Shown one piece after another: positions 15,283-21,235 of a DNA stretch of 24,000 nucleotides (the stretch's first letter is position 1; each line of letters starts with the position of its first letter). The notes under the pieces were generated by a model. The model searched no databases. It was not told the DNA's origin and was given only the letters and a program-made list of their open reading frames with translations. The stretch is taken from contig JBIIHL010000020.1 in assembly GCA_044235825.1 (NCBI GenBank), positions 4,494-28,493 of the forward strand. The letters are read 5' to 3'. Position numbers and translations under genes: made by a program. The stretch is from Alphaproteobacteria bacterium (GTDB lineage: Bacteria > Pseudomonadota > Alphaproteobacteria > JAJTHO01 > CANGYM01).

Positions 15283-15354
15283 GGGGATATCCTTGACTTT
15301 TTTCCCTTGGATCCCAACTATACTGGAAATTCATCGATCAGCAAGAGGTTATCC

Positions 15355-17697
15355 ATGGTTTTACGGGTTTTGGCATGGGCATTGCTCGGGATTGTTGTCC
15401 TGCTTGGCATCGGGCTTTACAGCATAAACGATGTGATCAAAGCCCCCTATATCCGCGATCAGATTGTGGCGCAGGTCCAAAAAGCCACCGGACGCACCCT
15501 GACCATAAACGGCGACATGGCCATTCATTGGGGACTGTCCCCACGCCTGAGCCTGAATGGCATAAGCCTGAGCAATGCCCCCTTTGACACCACCGGCCCG
15601 ATGGTGCAGGCTAAAACAATCGACCTGAACATTGCCTTTCTTCCTTTAATTTTTGGGGATGTGGTCGTTGATGGGCTGGATGTGGGGGGGATGACTGTGC
15701 GCCTGACCATTGATCCCAAGGGCAACACCAACTGGACACTCTCCCCCCCTGCCCCGCAACAGACCCCAAATACCGATGCCCAAGCCCCCGCATCCTCTGC
15801 AAAACCCCCCGCAGCCCCCCATCTGGTGATCCGCAATCTGTCCATTCGGGACAGCGTTGTTCTTTTCACCGATCAACGGACCAACACAACGACACAGGAA
15901 ACGCTGGACATTGCCAACCTGACCCTAGAGGGCCAGACCAAAGGGCACCGTTTCTCTCTGACAGGGGGATTGCGCCAAACCCCGCTGAGTCTTTCGGGGA
16001 CGATTCAGGACAGTCTGGCCCTGTTGTCCCGCACGGGACAAAGCCCCCTCACCCTGAAAGGCACGCTGGCCGATGTGGGATTTACGGCCGCGGGCATCAT
16101 CACAAAACATCTGGGGGCACTCAGCAAAGCCGAGGGCACCCTGACCCTGAACGCATCCGCTTGGCCCAAGGCGTTTCCGTCGCCGGATCTGCCGCCCATG
16201 ACCATGAAAACGGGGATTTTGTATACGCCGGAATCCGTGACATGGACGCAAGGGGAGATCACCAGCCTGGGGGCCACCGTCACCAGCAACGGCACGTACC
16301 GTTTGAAAGAGGGATCCTTTGATGGGGCCATTCAGGTGGCGTCTTCGGGATCTGCCGATCTGGCCACACGATTTCAGGTGCCTTTGTTGCAAAAGCCCCT
16401 GTCTGTCAAAGGCCGCCTTCAGAAAAAAGGGGACGTCATCACGTGGGGCAAGGTGAAGGGCACACTGGGCACCGCCACGACGGTTGAAAGCGACGGGACC
16501 CTGCGCTGGCCACAGGGGGCCGCCGTCCCCACGTTGGTGCAGGCGGATATACGCAGCCCTCTGGTGGTGCTGGCGGATCTGCAAACACCGGCCCCTGCCC
16601 CTGCTGCGCCCTCTGGGGCATCGGCGTTGCCTGAAAACGCCGCGCAAAACGATGCCGCCCCCACACCCAAGCCCGCGCCTGCCCCCGCCTCTTGGCGGCA
16701 GATCACCCTGTATCCCACCCCGTGGTCTGGTCTGCGCGGTGTGATCACGGTCAGTCTGGATCATGTTCGGGAAACGGCAGAGGCAGGGGATCTGTTGACC
16801 CAAGTCACCCTACGCGCCACCCAACAGGACGCCTTGGCCATGGAGGGTCGGGGGCGTTTTTATCAGGATGGGGGGATGACCTTTTCGGCCTCTTTAACGC
16901 CGCAGCCGCAGGGCCCCAAACCCACAACCCCACCCAAGGCAACCTTGGCCATGCTGCTGAATGTCACCCATCCCAATGTGGGGGCCTTGCTGAAAACAAC
17001 CGGCCTGACCTCTGCGATGCAGGGGGGGGGCAGTCACCTTTTGGCCAATGTCCAGGGCACCGGCCACACCCCTCAGACGGTGCTGGCCACCCTTTCTGGG
17101 GATGTCACCTTGGGCATGGGGCCGGCCACGGTTCAAAGCGAAGCCCTGCTTTCCTCCTTTGTGTCCGGTGATTTGGCGCGGGCTCTGCTGGGGGATCAAA
17201 AAACGCTGCCCCTCTCTTGCATCGCCACAAACTGGCCCTTTGTTCAGGGGGTGGCCACCACCCCCGTGACGCTGCTGGAAAGCCCCGCCGTGCGGGTATG
17301 GGGAACGGGCACCATCACTCTGGGCTCCAGCACCGTGGCCATGACCTTAACCCCCACGCCCAAAGACCCCCTGCTGGCGACCTTGGCGGTGCCGGTATCG
17401 GTTACGGGACCTTTGGATGCGCCCCGCGCCTCTTTGGGCAAGCAAGGGGTGGAAACCCTGACAAACACCGTGTTGTCCCTGATTCAAAACAAAGGGAAAC
17501 TGCCCGCCGCCCCCCTGCCCGCCAACGACGACATCTGCGCCAAGGTCCTGATTCCGCTGAAGGATGGGCGGTTTGAGGTGCGGGGGGTTAGTAACTCATC
17601 CCTCCCTCAAACCGCGCCTGAAGAACAGCCCTCTCAGAAGACCCACCCCCTGAAGAAGAAGGAGATTCTTGAGGGGTTGCGGGGGTTGTGGAGGTAG
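15355..17697 (+). CDS. AsmA family outer-membrane biogenesis/lipid-transport-like protein
   Basis: An N-terminal signal-anchor (VLRVLAWALLGIVVLLGIGLY) is followed by ...IRDQIVAQVQKATGRTLTINGDMAIHWGLSPRLSLNGISLSN, typical of the AsmA N-domain, then a long beta-rich body. ATG at 15355 has AAGAGG 6 nt upstream; the track start at 15307 is TTG. Confidence 0.8.
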   Translation: MVLRVLAWALLGIVVLLGIGLYSINDVIKAPYIRDQIVAQVQKATGRTLTINGDMAIHWGLSPRLSLNGISLSNAPFDTTGPMVQAKTIDLNIAFLPLIFGDVVVDGLDVGGMTVRLTIDPKGNTNWTLSPPAPQQTPNTDAQAPASSAKPPAAPHLVIRNLSIRDSVVLFTDQRTNTTTQETLDIANLTLEGQTKGHRFSLTGGLRQTPLSLSGTIQDSLALLSRTGQSPLTLKGTLADVGFTAAGIITKHLGALSKAEGTLTLNASAWPKAFPSPDLPPMTMKTGILYTPESVTWTQGEITSLGATVTSNGTYRLKEGSFDGAIQVASSGSADLATRFQVPLLQKPLSVKGRLQKKGDVITWGKVKGTLGTATTVESDGTLRWPQGAAVPTLVQADIRSPLVVLADLQTPAPAPAAPSGASALPENAAQNDAAPTPKPAPAPASWRQITLYPTPWSGLRGVITVSLDHVRETAEAGDLLTQVTLRATQQDALAMEGRGRFYQDGGMTFSASLTPQPQGPKPTTPPKATLAMLLNVTHPNVGALLKTTGLTSAMQGGGSHLLANVQGTGHTPQTVLATLSGDVTLGMGPATVQSEALLSSFVSGDLARALLGDQKTLPLSCIATNWPFVQGVATTPVTLLESPAVRVWGTGTITLGSSTVAMTLTPTPKDPLLATLAVPVSVTGPLDAPRASLGKQGVETLTNTVLSLIQNKGKLPAAPLPANDDICAKVLIPLKDGRFEVRGVSNSSLPQTAPEEQPSQKTHPLKKKEILEGLRGLWR

Positions 17698-18691
17698 GGG
17701 GTAATTCAGCCAATCTACCTTTTATTAAACTGACAAACGTAGGATAACTGGATAAAGGATTTTGGCTATCGGGGGCAATAACGTCCAAACAGCGCTGTAA
17801 AAAAAGCCTCCCTGTGTTTAATTTTTTATCCAAAATTCTAATAATATAATCCTCTAGTTTTGAACTCTCTAATGGTGAATTTTTGCATTGTGAAAAACTG
17901 TTCAAAATACTTCCCCGAACCCCTTGTTCGGCTGCGATATATGCTCCGTTTAAGGCCACGCTCTCACGGCGATAATTAATACTACCGAAATCTCTTTGGT
18001 CGATCTCTTGCAAAGCAGATGGATAATTCGTTCCCATCTGAGATCTGAAAGCATTTACAAAACTTTCTAACGCTTTTTGCTGGGCATCATATGGTCTATC
18101 GGGCGAATACGATGTCATGATCGCTGACATCAGGAAGGTTCTAGAAATATCAGAAACCTTAACGTTATCGTTAATTCTAAGCAATTGCTTAATGGCTTGT
18201 TTTAAAGGTCTTTTTTCTCCTTTGGGGGAATCCTGATGCAGTTCAGATTGTTCTAGTAGCAAAGCCTGTTCAAATTCTTCTGCTAGCAAAGCAACTAGAG
18301 CATCCACCCATTTTGGGTCAAGTTGATCTTTCTTTAAATTCACTATGGGAATAGCAAACAAACTATCGTTAGAATCCTTGCCAAGCCATCTAGCTTCAAG
18401 AAGGGCACTATCATACCGTTTATTAAAATCATCCAAGTCTTGCGAGTCTAAAAACGCTATCAAGTCAGGATCTTCCAAAGGAACCCAAGTGGCTCCTCTT
18501 TCTACTGCATTATAAACAAAAGATTTTACAAGATATTCTTTCAAAGCATGGTCCACATCAGAGCCCTTGGCGGTGACGGCTCTCATACTGTCGAGATCCT
18601 CTGGATTTAATCGAACTAATGCTTCGATACAGGATGCAAGATTTGCTTTTGCGCTTTCGAGGTCCTCTGGATTAACAATTCTAGTAATCAT
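17588..18691 (-). CDS. Orphan hypothetical protein, 367 aa, encoded on AT-rich DNA; no recognisable domain
   Basis: A long uninterrupted ORF with an ATG start, in a segment whose composition drops sharply. My hand counts of 60-nt samples give 60% GC at 17521-17580, 33% at 17701-17760 and 37% at 18301-18360. No competing ORF covers 17.7-18.7 kb. The last ~37 codons overlap the asmA 3' end on the opposite strand. Confidence 0.6.
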   Translation of the reverse strand: MITRIVNPEDLESAKANLASCIEALVRLNPEDLDSMRAVTAKGSDVDHALKEYLVKSFVYNAVERGATWVPLEDPDLIAFLDSQDLDDFNKRYDSALLEARWLGKDSNDSLFAIPIVNLKKDQLDPKWVDALVALLAEEFEQALLLEQSELHQDSPKGEKRPLKQAIKQLLRINDNVKVSDISRTFLMSAIMTSYSPDRPYDAQQKALESFVNAFRSQMGTNYPSALQEIDQRDFGSINYRRESVALNGAYIAAEQGVRGSILNSFSQCKNSPLESSKLEDYIIRILDKKLNTGRLFLQRCLDVIAPDSQNPLSSYPTFVSLIKGRLAELPPTSTTPATPQESPSSSGGGSSERAVLQARFEGGMSY

Positions 18692-18781
18692 AATTCACGT
18701 TCCATCTCTATATTTAACATTTTATAAAGTTACAAAAAAATTTTATTTCTACCGTAACAAATATCACATTTTCCCGCCAAA

Positions 18782-18804
18782 CCCAAAAAAATTTTTTGGG
18801 GGGG
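18782..18804. repeat. C3-A7-T6-G7 homopolymer palindrome in the divergent intergenic region
   Basis: CCCAAAAAAATTTTTTGGGGGGG read directly from the sequence. It lies between the divergently oriented orphan gene and the TA operon. Confidence 0.6.
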
Positions 18805-18825
18805 TGATGTTTTGGGATCAAAATC

Positions 18826-18854
18826 TTGACAAAAATCTCTATTATCGCTACACT
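18826..18854 (+). promoter_or_regulatory. Candidate sigma70-type promoter for the TA operon (TTGACA-17 nt-TACACT)
   Basis: Consensus TTGACA at 18826-18831, a 17-nt spacer, TACACT at 18849-18854, about 27 nt upstream of the antitoxin start. Confidence 0.4.
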
Positions 18855-18880
18855 TATAACCAATCATCCCATAGACTGTG

Positions 18881-19144
18881 ATGTTCATCATGACTGACAT
18901 TATATCCTCTCGAGACGCGCAAAACCACTTTGGGTCCCTTTTGGATCGGGCCCAGCATGCGCCTGTGATTATCAAGCGGCACAAGCGCGATTGCGTGGCC
19001 GTCATTTCCATGCAAGATTTTGCCCAGTGGCAGGCGTTAAAATCCCAAAATTTCCTGTCTTTGCGCCATGACCTTGCCGAAAAAGCAGCCCAGCGCGGCC
19101 TAACCCCTGAAATCCTGTCAGAGATTCTCGCCTCTGATGCTTAA
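18881..19144 (+). CDS. Type II antitoxin, Phd/YefM family
   Basis: Small (~85 aa) protein with ...ISSRDAQNHFGSLLDRAQHAPVIIKRHKRDCVAVISMQDF, typical of the Phd/YefM N-terminal fold. It overlaps the downstream PIN gene by 8 nt. Start is ambiguous (GTG 18878, ATG 18881, ATG 18890). Confidence 0.8.
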   Translation: MFIMTDIISSRDAQNHFGSLLDRAQHAPVIIKRHKRDCVAVISMQDFAQWQALKSQNFLSLRHDLAEKAAQRGLTPEILSEILASDA

Positions 19145-19550
19145 AAGGTTTGTTTTTGACACCAATGTCCTGATCAGTGCCTTCTTGGCCCCGCTTACGC
19201 CACCCTTTCAGGCGTTAACCTATGCCATCAAAGAAGGGATTTTGCTGCGTTCTCAAGAAACCGATGCGGAACTGACCTCTGTCCTCGCCAGACCCAAATT
19301 TCGCCGGTATTTATCAACTTCTGAAACACAGTCTTTGCTCGCCTCTTATCATGACGTTGCTGAACACATTCCCCATGTTCCCCCCATTGCTATATGCCGC
19401 GACCCCAACGATGATAAATTTCTGGCCTTGGCCGTGCATGGCCATGCGTCTTATGTGATTACGGGCGACCAAGACTTGCTGATTTTAAACCCCTTTTCAG
19501 GCATTCCCCTGCTAACACCTAGGGCATTTTTAACCACGTGTGGATTGTGA
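19137..19550 (+). CDS. PIN-domain toxin (the 'putative toxin-antitoxin system toxin component, PIN family' type)
   Basis: FVFDTNVLISAFL.........ELTSVLARPKF.RY......ICRDPNDDKFLALAVHGHASYVITGDQDLLIL....GIPLLTPRAFL matches this PIN subfamily, including the conserved acidic positions. Confidence 0.88.
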   Translation: MLKRFVFDTNVLISAFLAPLTPPFQALTYAIKEGILLRSQETDAELTSVLARPKFRRYLSTSETQSLLASYHDVAEHIPHVPPIAICRDPNDDKFLALAVHGHASYVITGDQDLLILNPFSGIPLLTPRAFLTTCGL

Positions 19551-19587
19551 TATTTTTCACCCCCCCAACACCTAAATTGCGGCAGGA

Positions 19588-19687
19588 CCCTCTCCCTAGC
19601 CCTCTCCCTGACAGGGAGAGGGAACACAACCTCCTCCCTCTCCCCCCCGGGGAGAGGGCTGGGGAGAGGGGCCGTCACAAAATCATA
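19588..19687. repeat. Left palindromic repeat block (extra hairpin unit plus a 57-bp unit shared with the right flank)
   Basis: CCCTCTCCCT occurs twice (19588-19597, 19600-19609) and pairs with AGGGAGAGGG at 19613-19622. CCCTCTCCCC (19636-19645) pairs with GGGGAGAGGG (19649-19658), and a second GGGGAGAGGG lies at 19661-19670. The tail is CACAAAATCATA. Confidence 0.85.
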
Positions 19688-19721
19688 GATTGATAACAAA
19701 ACATGCCTATACTCATAACTT

Positions 19722-20066
19722 ATGCCCCCCATCAAAGATCACGCCAAATATCTCCGATCCACAATGACAGAAGCAGAGCAATGTCTGTGGCGTGCATTGC
19801 GTGCCCAACGCTTTCATGGTTTTAAATTCCGAAGGCAACATATATTTGACCATTATATTGTTGATTTCGTTTGCTTAAAGAAAAAACTGATCATCGAAAT
19901 CGATGGGGGTCAACATGCAGATCAGTGGTTATACGATCAAAGACGAACAGAATTTTTAACGTCTCAAGGATACCGTGTTTTGCGTTTTTGGAATTCGGAT
20001 GTTCTGAATCACCTTGAATACGTTTTAGAAACTGTTTTGCAATCTCTTCGTCATGCTGAAGAATAA
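19722..20066 (+). CDS. DUF559 domain protein (Vsr-like / PD-(D/E)XK endonuclease fold)
   Basis: ...MTEAEQCLWRALRAQRFHGFKFRRQHIFDHYIVDFVCLKKKLIIEIDGGQH........D..R...L...GYRVLRFWN.DVL matches the DUF559 family. A hand count gives ~38% GC at 19861-19920. Confidence 0.88.
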   Translation: MPPIKDHAKYLRSTMTEAEQCLWRALRAQRFHGFKFRRQHIFDHYIVDFVCLKKKLIIEIDGGQHADQWLYDQRRTEFLTSQGYRVLRFWNSDVLNHLEYVLETVLQSLRHAEE

Positions 20067-20076
20067 TTTTCAGCCC

Positions 20077-20132
20077 CTCCTCCCTCTCCCCCTCGGGGAG
20101 AGGGTTGGGGAGAGATGCGCCACAAAATCATA
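20077..20132. repeat. Right copy of the ~57-bp palindrome-containing direct repeat
   Basis: CTCCTCCCTCTCCCC-CTC-GGGGAGAGGG-TT-GGGGAGAG...CACAAAATCATA. By hand alignment, 48 of ~57 positions are identical to 19631-19687, in the same orientation. Confidence 0.85.
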
Positions 20133-20147
20133 AACCCGTATTTTTTA

Positions 20148-20176
20148 TTGCCTCCAACCCCTGCGGGGATTATGAT
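20148..20176 (+). promoter_or_regulatory. Candidate promoter for ssb (TTGCCT-17 nt-TATGAT)
   Basis: TTGCCT at 20148-20153, a 17-nt spacer, TATGAT at 20171-20176. GGGGA lies 8 nt before the ssb ATG. Pattern only. Confidence 0.35.
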
Positions 20177-20218
20177 TCGGTTTTTGATTGATGACAACAC
20201 AGTGATGGGGATTCTTTT

Positions 20219-20728
20219 ATGGCCGGAAGTTTAAACAAAGTCATGCTGATTGGCAACGTGGGCAAAGACCCTGAAATTCGCACCTCCCAGGATGGGACCA
20301 AATTGGCGACGCTTACCTTGGCCACATCCGAAACATGGCGCGACAAACAATCGGGGGAGCGCAAAGACCGCACCGAATGGCACCGCGTGGTGATTTTTAA
20401 CGACAAACTGGCGGATATCGCCGAGCGCTATGTCAAAAAAGGCAGCCGCATTTTTATCGAGGGCCAACTGCAAACCCGCAAATGGACCGACCAAAGCAAC
20501 GTTGAAAAATACACAACAGAAATTGTCATTTCCCGCTTTAAAGGCGAGCTGACCCTGCTGGATACCAAATCCGACGGCGGCGGCGCCCGCGGCGGCAGTG
20601 GGTACGAGGGGGGATCCTCTCTGGCCGGCCCGGGTGACGGGGCTTTGTATTATGACAGCCCCGAAACGCGGCCCTCCGCCCCTGCGGTCCATTTGGAAAA
20701 AGAGCTTGATGACGAAATCCCGTTTTAG
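20219..20728 (+). CDS. ssb: Single-stranded DNA-binding protein
   Basis: LNKVMLIGNVGKDPEIR....G...A...LATSE.W.D...GERK..TEWHRVV.F......A..Y..KGS...IEG.LQTRKW, a Gly-rich linker and the acidic tail DDEIPF. Confidence 0.95.
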   Translation: MAGSLNKVMLIGNVGKDPEIRTSQDGTKLATLTLATSETWRDKQSGERKDRTEWHRVVIFNDKLADIAERYVKKGSRIFIEGQLQTRKWTDQSNVEKYTTEIVISRFKGELTLLDTKSDGGGARGGSGYEGGSSLAGPGDGALYYDSPETRPSAPAVHLEKELDDEIPF

Positions 20729-20740
20729 GGCCTGCCCATT

Positions 20741-21235
20741 ATGGACACACCCCATATCAAACCGGCCACGCCGGAGGATTTTCACGCCATCTGGTCTTTC
20801 TTTAAGCCCATCACCCGTGACGACAATGCCTTTTGCATGCCTGATGGCTTAGACTTTGACACCGCCAAGGCCATCTGGTTTTCCAAACACCACCAGATTT
20901 TCAAACTGGTTTTGGGGGACACCATCATCGGCACCATCATGCTGCGCCCTAACTTTGGGGGCCCGGGACGCCATCAGGTTGCCAACGCCACCTTTATCAT
21001 TGATCCCGCCCATCACGGACGCGGTTATGGCCGGACAATCGGCCAGTTTGCGCTGGATGAGGCCCGCCGCCAAGGCTATACCGCCATGCTGTTCAATTCC
21101 GTGGTCAGCACGAACCAACGGGCGCTGCATCTTTGGCAATCCTTGGGCTTTCGCATCATTGGAACGGTTCCCCGTGCCTATCGCCACCACACGCTGGGGT
21201 GGGTGGATACGCACATCATGCACCGCTTTTTGTAG
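20741..21235 (+). CDS. GNAT family N-acetyltransferase
   Basis: An acetyl-CoA binding-type motif (HHGRGYGRTIGQFALDEARRQGY) followed by ...NQRALHLWQSLGFRIIGTVP, 164 aa. Confidence 0.85.
   Translation: MDTPHIKPATPEDFHAIWSFFKPITRDDNAFCMPDGLDFDTAKAIWFSKHHQIFKLVLGDTIIGTIMLRPNFGGPGRHQVANATFIIDPAHHGRGYGRTIGQFALDEARRQGYTAMLFNSVVSTNQRALHLWQSLGFRIIGTVPRAYRHHTLGWVDTHIMHRFL

Follow-up and report, generated by a model that had tools for sequence, protein, structure and literature searches.

The closest described counterparts of the locus analysed here are the replacement flexible genomic islands of aquatic prokaryotes (Lopez-Perez, Martin-Cuadrado & Rodriguez-Valera 2014, PMC4033161), which lie at a fixed position between core genes, differ by non-homologous content in very close relatives, are devoid of mobility genes and have a divergence peak at the boundary as a signature. 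These islands comprise clusters of several genes devoted to exposed structures, among them O-chain and glycosylation genes. Besides, two individual parts of the locus resemble other known systems, namely the type II toxin-antitoxin (TA) pairs made of a Phd/YefM antitoxin and a VapC-like PIN toxin, and the PF04480 fold family, to which belong Vsr, the Caulobacter VsrA of the unlinked ScmA/VsrA pair (PMC12907096) and the 'endonuclease-like protein' of PDB 3hrl.

The window, i.e. the whole stretch of 24,000 nucleotides analysed, comes from a metagenome-assembled genome (MAG) in 79 contigs, referred to as G000, and was set against six congeners as well as about 15 metagenome contigs; the relatives are all either MAGs or short contigs of metagenomic origin, in which some absences may be assembly gaps. 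Between an asmA-family gene (15307-17697, plus strand; PF05170, 104 bits) and ssb (20219-20728, plus strand; PF00436, 125 bits), which form the conserved left and right flanks, the window carries a variable interval with borders at 17698-17702 and about 20132-20139. With a probability of roughly three in four, this asmA-ssb interval is a hypervariable mosaic of long standing, made of three independently evolving units, and not one acquired island. It shares with the replacement islands the fixed position between core genes, the non-homologous content in very close relatives without mobility genes, the boundary divergence peak and the aquatic host with a small genome. It differs from them in that the replaced unit comprises only one gene (about 1-3 kb), in that one of the alternatives is a divergent PEP-carboxylase (PEPC), and in that no signal peptide was seen by eye in the slot-product sequences.

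Regarding gene content, the initial annotation had described an orphan gene and a TA pair together with a DUF559 gene flanked by repeats, and the ORFs, domains and repeats confirm this description: a 367-aa ORF (17588-18691, minus strand, convergent with asmA) is followed by phd (18878-19144), a PIN_3-family toxin gene (19137-19550) and the DUF559 gene (19722-20066), all three on the plus strand. Its three hand-counted GC values of 60%, 33% and 37% proved exact upon recount (0.600 at 17521-17580, 0.333 at 17701-17760 and 0.367 at 18301-18360), and the low-GC stretch is indeed unusual, the 1-kb genome window of the orphan gene (GC 0.398) ranking 15th lowest among 2767 windows whose mean is about 0.526 with a standard deviation of 0.042. 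However, the composition does not return to backbone style only at ssb, as had been proposed: the deviation is restricted to 17698-18877 (GC 0.35-0.39) and to the DUF559 gene (GC 0.40), the GC3 being 0.33 in the 367-aa and DUF559 genes versus 0.65-0.70 in the flanking genes, whereas phd-PIN, with a GC of 0.49-0.52 and a GC3 of 0.50-0.60, is near the genome mean (about 0.525). The reported absence of mobility features agrees with our searches, which detected no tRNA or tmRNA in the window, no integrase or transposase among its ORFs and no direct repeat pairing its two outer borders.

The order asmA-orf367-phd-PIN-DUF559-ssb was found again on a Logan run assembly contig (8414 nt, 100% identity) and on a JGI metagenome contig (8131 nt, 99.9% identity), two contigs of separate collections (L061 and L062) that may nonetheless stem from the MAG's own sample, while individual junctions recur separately in L027, L046 and G005. 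A chimeric join arising from assembly or binning via dispersed hairpin repeats could be imagined in view of the 79 contigs of the MAG, the 21 sites of the hairpin unit, which are spread over 11 of these contigs, and the fact that contigs of relatives often end at such repeats (L046 ends at 19607), but the recurrence of the gene order and of its junctions makes such an artefact hardly conceivable.

The first unit of the mosaic would be a single-gene replacement slot (17703-18744, GC 0.386), i.e. a replaceable low-GC cassette for which at least three unrelated low-GC families alternate. Its left breakpoint is located just past the asmA stop codon, all relatives aligning up to 17699-17702, and its right breakpoint precedes TAACAAATATCACATTT in the window as well as in L022, L046, L049, L050 and L054, the identical pair of breakpoints being found in at least six lineages. 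The right flank of the slot (18745-18877), a divergent promoter region conserved in relatives, contains a palindromic sequence within 18745-18807 and a promoter-like TTGACA-17-TACACT site upstream of phd (18826-18854); from 18755 onward, identity amounts to 94-98% in L049, L050 and G005, to 91% in L046 and to 83%, over a partial alignment, in L054. In close relatives, the slot is occupied by family A, to which the 367-aa protein belongs, by family B or by a divergent PEPC, which are unrelated and low in GC. For instance, G005, whose AsmA is 96% identical at the amino acid level, harbors a 1004-aa PEPC-like gene, G003 a different PEPC-like gene that is about 21-23% identical to the former (its slot being split across two contig ends), and G001 the family-B orf310. 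In the same line, family B is present in L055-57, whose ssb (99-100%) and phd (99%) are nonetheless almost identical to those of the window. At the right end of the variable interval, homology resumes at 20128 in L027, 20139 in G005 and 20141 in G003, and the ssb protein is 95-100% identical in relatives with any slot allele. The comparison of the asmA-ssb junction in related genomes, put forward earlier to define the borders of an insertion, thus revealed an interval that varies among congeners and allowed its borders to be placed, but did not uncover a single islet.

L049 is 96% identical to the window in the AsmA protein, yet its family-A allele is only about 37% identical; the dS between the two is 1.7 in the slot versus 0.06 in asmA. 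Pairs of family-B genes show a dS of 0.10-0.22 and a dN/dS of 0.75-1.02, compared to a dS of 0.02-0.03 and a dN/dS of 0-0.15 in the flanks, while the dN/dS of family A is 0.42-0.57. A value near 1, as in family B, is also expected under relaxed constraint. Between the window and strains with a different slot allele, asmA identity remains at 0.95-1.00 across most of the gene, and the final 150-nt bin shows values of 0.93 in L049, 0.87 in G005 and 0.71 in L055; as read from these alignments, the last ~150-300 nt of asmA co-travel with the slot allele. This divergence peak in the asmA tail, together with the shared breakpoints, suggests that alleles are swapped via homologous recombination in the conserved flanks, which would account for the absence of an integrase or att site. 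Transposition may also contribute to slot turnover, given the IS1595-family transposase lying exactly at the right boundary of the slot in one relative (L063). Finally, the same slot houses family-A genes in L047 and L054, where identity at the AsmA C-terminus drops to 63%, which indicates a gene family that is old at this position and whose GC remained low.

The 367-aa protein has no match in Pfam, NCBIfam or PADLOC, and when 1.84 billion representatives were scanned in full with HMMER, six matches were returned, i.e. the window's own gene, four true relatives and P0005, the latter sharing only the antisense tail. All the family-A members that were fetched lie directly downstream of asmA in the same slot. 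Their alignment displays conserved N- and C-terminal modules, the long forms carrying in addition an insert of ~120 aa, and these modules share 32 invariant positions in 7 sequences, whose identity to that of the window is 28-47%. While the short forms retain their own C-terminus and stop codon, the final 35 codons of the window's gene are antisense to asmA, so that, by comparison, this protein has lost its native C-terminus. In the AF2 model built with the alignment, the pLDDT reaches 84-94 over large parts of the ranges 11-70 and 241-320 and drops to about 30 at 331-367; the protein is predicted to be alpha-helical with few short strands, and no match was retrieved by a fold search of the PDB and BFVD.

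These features raise the question of whether the ORFs of the slot, the 367-aa gene among them, are in decay or devoid of function and turn over as junk under relaxed selection and AT-biased mutation, which their low GC and high dN/dS would reflect. The dN/dS values of both families, the run of the window's gene into antisense asmA, the presence or absence of the insert among family members and the lack of a family or fold match would be in agreement with this idea. Nevertheless, frames of 225-1004 codons are open in DNA of about 40% GC in every lineage, whereas a 331-codon open frame has, by our own estimate, a chance of about 2.5e-10 in 39% GC DNA, and a nucleotide divergence of 10-15% occurring at random would yield several stop codons. 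Since the invariant positions and the modules predicted to fold with high pLDDT also speak against decay, this explanation is considered unlikely.

The second unit of the mosaic, phd-PIN_3, would be an ordinary type II TA operon that resides in the clade and whose toxin is being lost in some lineages. As in known type II TA pairs, the antitoxin gene comes first and overlaps the toxin gene by 8 nt (ATGCTTAA), pointing to translational coupling, and both domains score above curated cut-offs: PF02604 reaches 43.4 bits on Phd versus a cut-off of 29.8, TIGR01552 matching too, while the toxin, a predicted VapC-like RNase, scores 68.8 bits with PF13470 and 77.4 bits with TIGR00305. The acidic residues D8, E41/E45, D92/D93 and D111/D113 of the latter appear at the expected PIN active-site places, and nothing in the sequence of the pair looks unusual; a structure search gave no close solved structure for phd-PIN. 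The two genes are enclosed by short inverted repeats (18754-18768/19546-19560 and 18796-18807/19557-19568). The phd gene has a GC of 0.52 and a dN/dS of 0.15-0.24, and its product is 98-99% identical in G005, L055 and L057, and 93-94% in L027 and L046. PIN is intact in L046 (96% identity) and L063 (protein-identical), and remnants of it persist in L027 (first 19 codons) and G005 (first ~15 nt). The remnants, with their different deletion junctions, reveal an ancestral phd-PIN whose toxin was lost twice, i.e. by separate deletions in no fewer than two relatives, leaving an orphan antitoxin as in other type II systems.

The third unit, the DUF559 gene, would be a strain-specific gain within a dispersed double-hairpin repeat. 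Its product matches PF04480 with 146 bits over profile positions 4-108 of 109, and PDB 3hrl with an E-value of 7.7e-31, in line with a Vsr-like PD-(D/E)XK endonuclease fold; unlike Vsr, it is no Vsr equivalogue, TIGR00632 giving 20.7 bits versus a cut-off of 97.85. As in the unlinked ScmA/VsrA pair, the one C-5 cytosine methyltransferase of the genome is encoded at a distance from the DUF559 gene. This methyltransferase is found in five of the six congeners, all without DUF559, and the two genes therefore do not co-occur. The DUF559 gene is single-copy and specific to G000 among the seven genomes of the genus. On either side of the gene, which encodes about 110 aa, lie G-rich hairpin repeats belonging to the GGGAGAGGG / GGGGAGAGG type. 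The repeat element opens on the left with a long imperfect hairpin (19585-19673) consisting of two copies of a CCCTCTCCC-loop-GGGAGAGGG unit, with arms of 39 nt that are 85% complementary. Two plus-strand direct repeats, R1 (hairpin and CGTCACAAAATCATA, 19630-19687) on the left and R2 (20076-20132) on the right, match each other to about 93-95% and are spaced 446 nt apart, the end of R2 being the right end of the variable interval. Once joined, the DUF559 flanks show a collinear alignment, in 84-86 of 110-112 columns, with four copies of the element that lack the gene; this alignment places the gene at the middle of one double-hairpin repeat copy of ~125 nt. An exact pattern search recovered 18 hairpin sites in this genome and 1-11 per genome in the six congeners; as the latter keep the repeat without the gene, the nuclease is dispensable for repeat maintenance. 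Most of the DUF559 homologues from nine other alphaproteobacterial genomes have similar hairpins on both sides, and two metagenome contigs join the DUF559 unit head to tail, which points to a tandem array or circle. The DUF559 gene could be either a selfish mini-element or a passenger of the repeat.

The initial annotation had left undecided whether the orphan gene, Phd/PIN and the DUF559 gene form one TA-stabilised or nuclease-based defence locus or are independent insertions. Cooperation in one anti-phage or stabilisation locus is evoked by the adjacency of the genes, by a variable low-GC interval between core genes that looks like a defence hot spot, and by weak PADLOC matches of DUF559 to DpdF (E = 4e-6) and to a homing endonuclease model (E = 1e-4), but PADLOC gave no system-level match for the locus and every partial combination of the modules occurs: family A with phd, without PIN or DUF559, in L027, family A with phd and PIN in L046, phd only beside family B (L055, L057) or the PEPC-like gene (G005), family B alone in L056 and the PEPC-like gene alone in G003. 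Moreover, the proposed co-occurrence check turned out negative, none of the 11 DUF559 homologues of other genomes having a Phd, PIN or 367-aa homologue nearby. One cooperating locus is hence very improbable.

Scarcely more credit can be given to a single islet that a low-GC donor would have contributed in one insertion between asmA and ssb, its mobility genes having since been lost. While the sharp composition break at the asmA stop and the low GC3 of the orphan and DUF559 genes are in favor of it, the near-average GC of phd-PIN, the age of family A at the site, the presence of phd at 93-99% identity in relatives devoid of the other parts, some of them with another slot gene, and the separate gain of DUF559 inside a resident repeat are not. 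In addition, no donor with contiguous orf367, phd-PIN and DUF559 was found, the four family-A relatives of the HMMER scan all lying here.

Taken together, these data suggest that the asmA-ssb interval would be a recombination hot spot in a small bacterium of a freshwater alphaproteobacterial genus, in which three units with separate histories are juxtaposed. From what their sequences tell, these units probably do not work together, although a functional link between the slot gene and the TA pair may exist. Deeply divergent alleles on near-identical backgrounds, whose frames are open despite high dN/dS values, would fit balancing or frequency-dependent selection, which might speculatively be exerted via phage or another biotic interaction.

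The window belongs to a genome (G000) of 1.44 Mb in 79 contigs (98% complete, GC 0.525), in which it occupies positions 4494-28493 of contig C78. The GC content falls from 0.60-0.65 in the 3' part of the asmA-family gene (15307-17697, plus strand) to 0.32-0.43 between 17700 and 18900, and the hand counts of the initial annotation (0.600 at 17521-17580, 0.333 at 17701-17760, and 0.367 at 18301-18360) turned out to be exact. The 1-kb window holding the orphan gene ranks 15th lowest in GC out of 2767 (mean 0.526, sd 0.042). The genes named at that stage were all recovered by ORF and domain searches: an ORF of 367 aa without family match (17588-18691, minus strand), a Phd/YefM gene (18878-19144, plus strand, PF02604) and a PIN_3 gene (19137-19550, plus strand, PF13470 and TIGR00305), and a DUF559 gene (19722-20066, plus strand, PF04480) with its flanking repeats. 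Together with asmA, ssb (20219-20728, plus strand), and a GNAT gene, they account for all sizeable ORFs in 15307-21235. Foreign composition had been proposed to extend up to ssb; this holds for the cassette of the 367-aa gene (GC 0.39, GC3 0.33) and for the DUF559 gene (GC 0.40, GC3 0.33), which are the sole deviant parts, whereas the phd-PIN genes, with a GC of 0.49-0.52, lie near the genome mean. The reported lack of mobility genes and attachment sites was borne out, given that no recombinase domain was detected by domain search among the ORFs of 15307-21235, no tRNA or tmRNA within the window, and no direct repeat linking the border at ~17700 to that at ~20135.

An assembly artefact was rejected, since the gene order of the window is reproduced by a Logan contig (100%, 8414 nt) and by a JGI metagenome contig (99.9%, 8131 nt). 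Those relatives that public records name are listed as MAGs of an 'Alphaproteobacteria bacterium'; one comes from Lake Mendota, another is designated RE-18aug17 and is apparently from the Rimov reservoir. Among the six congeners, the asmA...ssb synteny is kept in G005 (asmA 96% identical at the amino acid level) and G003 (83%), while asmA is directly followed by dnaB in G006 and has another neighbour in G001. Homology to the window ends at 17699-17702, directly past the asmA stop, and resumes at 20139-20141 in G005 and G003 and at 20128 in the relative contig L027, thereby delimiting a variable interval from 17703 to ~20135, close to the 17588-20135 initially ascribed to a single integrase-less islet of possibly cooperating modules. 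The variability of this islet and its lack of integrase stand, but not its unity, as it resolves into three units with separate histories. We favour, with a probability of about three in four, a hypervariable-locus mosaic made of a recombination-driven single-gene slot, a resident and decaying toxin-antitoxin (TA) pair, and a DUF559 gene that is embedded in a repeat and specific to this strain.

The 367-aa ORF (family A) is a real gene, as indicated by its 331 open codons, its conserved columns, and its confidently predicted modules. By our own estimate, the chance of 331 open codons at 39% GC is ~2.5e-10. Six relatives, 28-47% identical to the 367-aa protein, emerged from a word-indexed search combined with a full HMMER scan of 1.84 billion representatives; one is a long form and five are short forms devoid of the central ~120 residues. 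In the N- and C-terminal modules, 32 columns are invariant across the seven sequences, and AF2 supplied with this alignment gave a usable model (pLDDT 67 overall, 84-94 in the modules), the single-sequence prediction being poor (pLDDT 41). All family-A relatives with a fetched contig are located directly downstream of asmA, in convergent orientation. In the window, the convergent overlap with asmA amounts to 110 nt (17588-17697), in the way that the last 35 residues of the protein, predicted to be disordered, correspond to the asmA tail read in antisense; the short members terminate ahead of asmA with an end of their own ('...LWNMMRANIR'), which argues that the gene of the window lost its native 3' end. 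The antisense origin of the tail also accounts for the match to P0005, a 396-aa protein returned by both searches whose common part is limited to the last 36 residues. A functional signal in the C-terminal tail was rejected on these grounds, namely its antisense origin, its predicted disorder, and the different C-terminus of the short forms. The unrelated slot genes of G001, L027, L046, L055, and P0005 likewise enter this antisense frame of the asmA tail, while those of G005, G003, and the short family-A forms end directly before it. Pfam, NCBIfam, and PADLOC gave no match for the 367-aa protein, nor did a profile search against PDB sequences, and Foldseek found no fold match for the model, with a best E of 0.24 and TM <= 0.16 in PDB and a best E of 0.33 in BFVD.

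The position occupied by this gene, a low-GC cassette at 17703-18744, behaves as a one-gene slot. Its breakpoints, at 17699-17702 and before 18745, are common to G005 and to the contigs L046, L049, L050, and L054, the right one lying in all of them, as in the window, directly before TAACAAATATCACATTT. In G005, which is 98% identical to the window over the phd upstream region and phd (18755-19151), the place between asmA and the phd region is taken by a low-GC ORF of 1004 aa with a PEP-carboxylase domain (L022:4162-7176; PF00311, E = 1.5e-35), and in G003 by another PEPC-like ORF (L023:1-2043 with L012:1-627; PF00311), ~21-23% identical to that of G005. No further PF00311 match was found across the seven genus genomes; a homologue 41% identical to the PEPC-like gene, on a 1.87-Mb contig of another assembly, lies amid transposase genes and does not adjoin asmA, so that the idea of the PEPC-like gene as an ancestral occupant of the slot gained no support. 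In G001, the slot gene is an unrelated 310-aa ORF (orf310), which forms, together with P0005 and the slot genes of three extra contigs (L055-57) retrieved by using the right-flank sequence as a search pattern, the weak family B (23-33% identity). Families A, B, and PEPC-like display no detectable mutual similarity except for the asmA-antisense tail, and a remote homology between A and B was rejected because this tail is all that they have in common. Comparing the occupants of this one position therefore gives at least three unrelated families. As a separate observation, one metagenome strain (contig L063) carries an IS1595-family DDE transposase (76-765, TIRs GGCTCTAGACTAG) inserted precisely where the slot ends on the right (equivalent of window 18745), with no homologue in G000.

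The slot flanks are 89-100% identical between close relatives with differing slot content. Between the window and L049, the dS is 0.06 for asmA and 1.7 for the family-A gene, whose products share 37% amino acid identity; pairwise comparison of L055, L056, and L057 gives a dS of 0.10-0.22 and a dN/dS of 0.75-1.02 for the slot gene, and 0.02-0.03 and 0-0.15, respectively, for ssb and phd. Judged by these divergences, the slot alleles are much older than their genomic backgrounds. Besides, compared with strains bearing other alleles, identity over the terminal 150 nt of asmA takes values of 0.93, 0.87, and 0.71 and is mostly 0.95-1.00 further upstream, while the right flank starts at 0.93 in its first bin and reaches 1.00 by the third. 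The same divergence signature at the boundaries characterizes replacement flexible genomic islands exchanged by homologous recombination (PMC4033161), which the slot further resembles by its fixed core-gene position, shared breakpoints, and non-homologous content; with regard to the exposed structures and phage targets encoded by such islands, no obvious signal peptide was seen by eye in the sequences. We infer that the cassette would be swapped by recombination within the conserved flanks, which would account for the missing integrase.

It seems improbable that at least one of two further-reaching views holds, namely that the slot is a balanced polymorphism and/or that the DUF559 unit is an autonomous mini-element. 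According to the former, the three unrelated families, including one divergent PEP-carboxylase, would be alternative alleles serving one ecological function, for example in resisting or recognising phages or other biotic partners, and frequency-dependent selection would keep these alleles while homologous recombination swaps them.

Next to the recombination-driven slot lies the second component of the mosaic, the TA pair. Both domains score above the curated thresholds (Phd: PF02604, 43.4 for a cut-off of 29.8; PIN: PF13470, 68.8 for 27, and TIGR00305, 77.4 for 29.15), the Pfam match of PIN covers positions 1-114 of 115, and the acidic residues D8, E41/E45, D92/D93, and D111/D113, read by eye, are candidates for the conserved PIN active site. 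As in type II Phd/YefM-PIN systems, the antitoxin gene comes first in an overlapping bicistron, phd ending at 19144 and PIN starting at 19137 (8-nt overlap, ATGCTTAA). The dN/dS of phd is 0.15-0.24. PIN is intact in L046 (96% identity) and its protein identical in L063; only its first 19 codons are left in L027, followed by a jump to window ~20132, and it is reduced to ~15 nt in G005, followed by a different repeat-like insert. Intact PIN genes in relatives, together with these differing remnants, indicate that the pair is ancestral in the clade and that deletion removed the toxin on at least two occasions. In L055 and L057, phd stands beside a family-B slot gene; PIN is missing from L055, the L057 contig ends at phd, and neither gene is present in L056 and G003. 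On sequence criteria, phd-PIN is thus a predicted ordinary type II TA pair, independent of the slot gene. Short inverted repeats bracket the pair (18754-18807 and 19546-19568), GTAACAAATATCACA with TGTGATATTTTTCAC and TTGGGGGGGTGA with TCACCCCCCCAA, and C17:11412 and C54:1144 hold similar motifs of the form TCACCCCCCCAA...TGTGA. The other repeat-like insert of the PIN-less relatives (L022:3555-3677 in G005, L055:2749-2994) contains GCGCTCGCAATGACAA, translates as ...LRCARNDKG..., and suggests that a second dispersed repeat family is active at the locus.

The third component, the DUF559 gene, is single-copy in G000 and present in only this one of the seven genus genomes. Its product is akin to the DUF559/Vsr-like PD-(D/E)XK endonucleases by its full-length PF04480 match (146 bits, positions 4-108 of 109) and its match to a solved member (PDB 3hrl, E = 7.7e-31). 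Assignment to Vsr proper was rejected (TIGR00632, 20.7 bits for a cut-off of 97.85), as was a link with C5-cytosine methyltransferases, with which no co-occurrence exists in the genus: the single PF00145 gene of G000 lies on a different contig from DUF559, and five of the six congeners, all devoid of DUF559, have members of this family too. The methyltransferase gene of G000 and a low-GC ORF of 300 aa and unknown family, whose 3' end it overlaps, possibly form a restriction-modification pair (G000:C57:25946-27741, L042:1408-3296); four of the five congeneric matches score nearly the same as the C57 gene.

The gene is flanked by hairpins of the form CCCTCTCCC-loop-GGGAGAGGG, which occur at 21 sites on 11 contigs of G000 and belong to a double-hairpin element of ~125 nt. 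This element consists of CCCTCTCCCGCTTGCGGGGGAGGG, a core with TTGTTCGATAACAA, and then CCCTCTCCCC-N3-GGGGAGAGGG, and often sits between inverted arrays, where tandem GGGAGTR heptamers face their reverse complement across the element, which gives it a MITE-like look. Copies are found on contigs C9, C39, C59, C67, and C75 (e.g. C67:5800-5960 and C75:26600-26760), and in Rfam the long hairpin gives only sub-threshold microRNA-like matches. When joined, the flanks of the DUF559 gene are collinear with gene-less copies over 84-86 of 110-112 columns (~76%), so that the gene sits at the centre of one element copy. In the same line, most DUF559 homologues from nine other alphaproteobacterial genomes have similar hairpins on both sides; the co-occurrence of the modules anticipated for a joint islet failed to appear there, since no Phd, PIN, or family-A gene was found near them. 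The exact hairpin pattern occurs at 18 sites in G000 and at 1-11 in each of the six DUF559-less congeners, indicating that the nuclease is not required for the persistence of the repeat. REP/RAYT-like repeat-plus-nuclease elements thus offer a parallel in that a gene is nested in a genome-dispersed repeat, but differ in that here the repeat is present independently of the DUF559 gene.

Two metagenome contigs assembled by MEGAHIT (k141), L059 (705 nt) and L060 (587 nt), originate from two ENA assemblies and correspond to window 19571-20132, with a DUF559 unit 98% identical to that of the window. The ends of each are identical over 141 nt, thereby closing to loops of 564 and 446 nt, respectively, via one hybrid R2/R1 repeat, which is the expected product of recombination between the 58-nt direct repeats R1 (19630-19687) and R2 (20076-20132). 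Such closed contigs may reflect units arrayed in tandem or else an excised circle, and arrays appear plausible in the light of a head-to-tail fragment upstream of the DUF559 homologue in the genome G007. According to the mini-element view, the second of the two considered improbable, the DUF559 unit would excise or amplify via its flanking hairpin repeats, and the ~125-nt double-hairpin repeats would be its non-autonomous derivatives.

In PADLOC-DB 2.0, family A, Phd, PIN, the PEPC-like gene, and family B gave no match, and DUF559 gave weak single-domain matches only. Under the favoured mosaic reading, each of the three parts is of a known kind, the slot being a small case of unusual clarity that involves three uncharacterised families. 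The reading is thereby corrected: a GC break, a TA pair, and a nuclease resemble a defence island, but the pieces are unrelated and of different ages. New data are brought for DUF559, in that congeners devoid of the gene retain the repeat and head-to-tail closed contigs exist. Of greater use is the finding of a precisely bounded one-gene replacement slot in an abundant, uncultured freshwater lineage with small genomes, where deeply divergent alleles, and even unrelated families, are carried upon near-identical backgrounds. The slot thereby draws attention to three uncharacterised gene families and offers a ready marker with which time series from lakes could be used to follow selection and the dynamics of strains.
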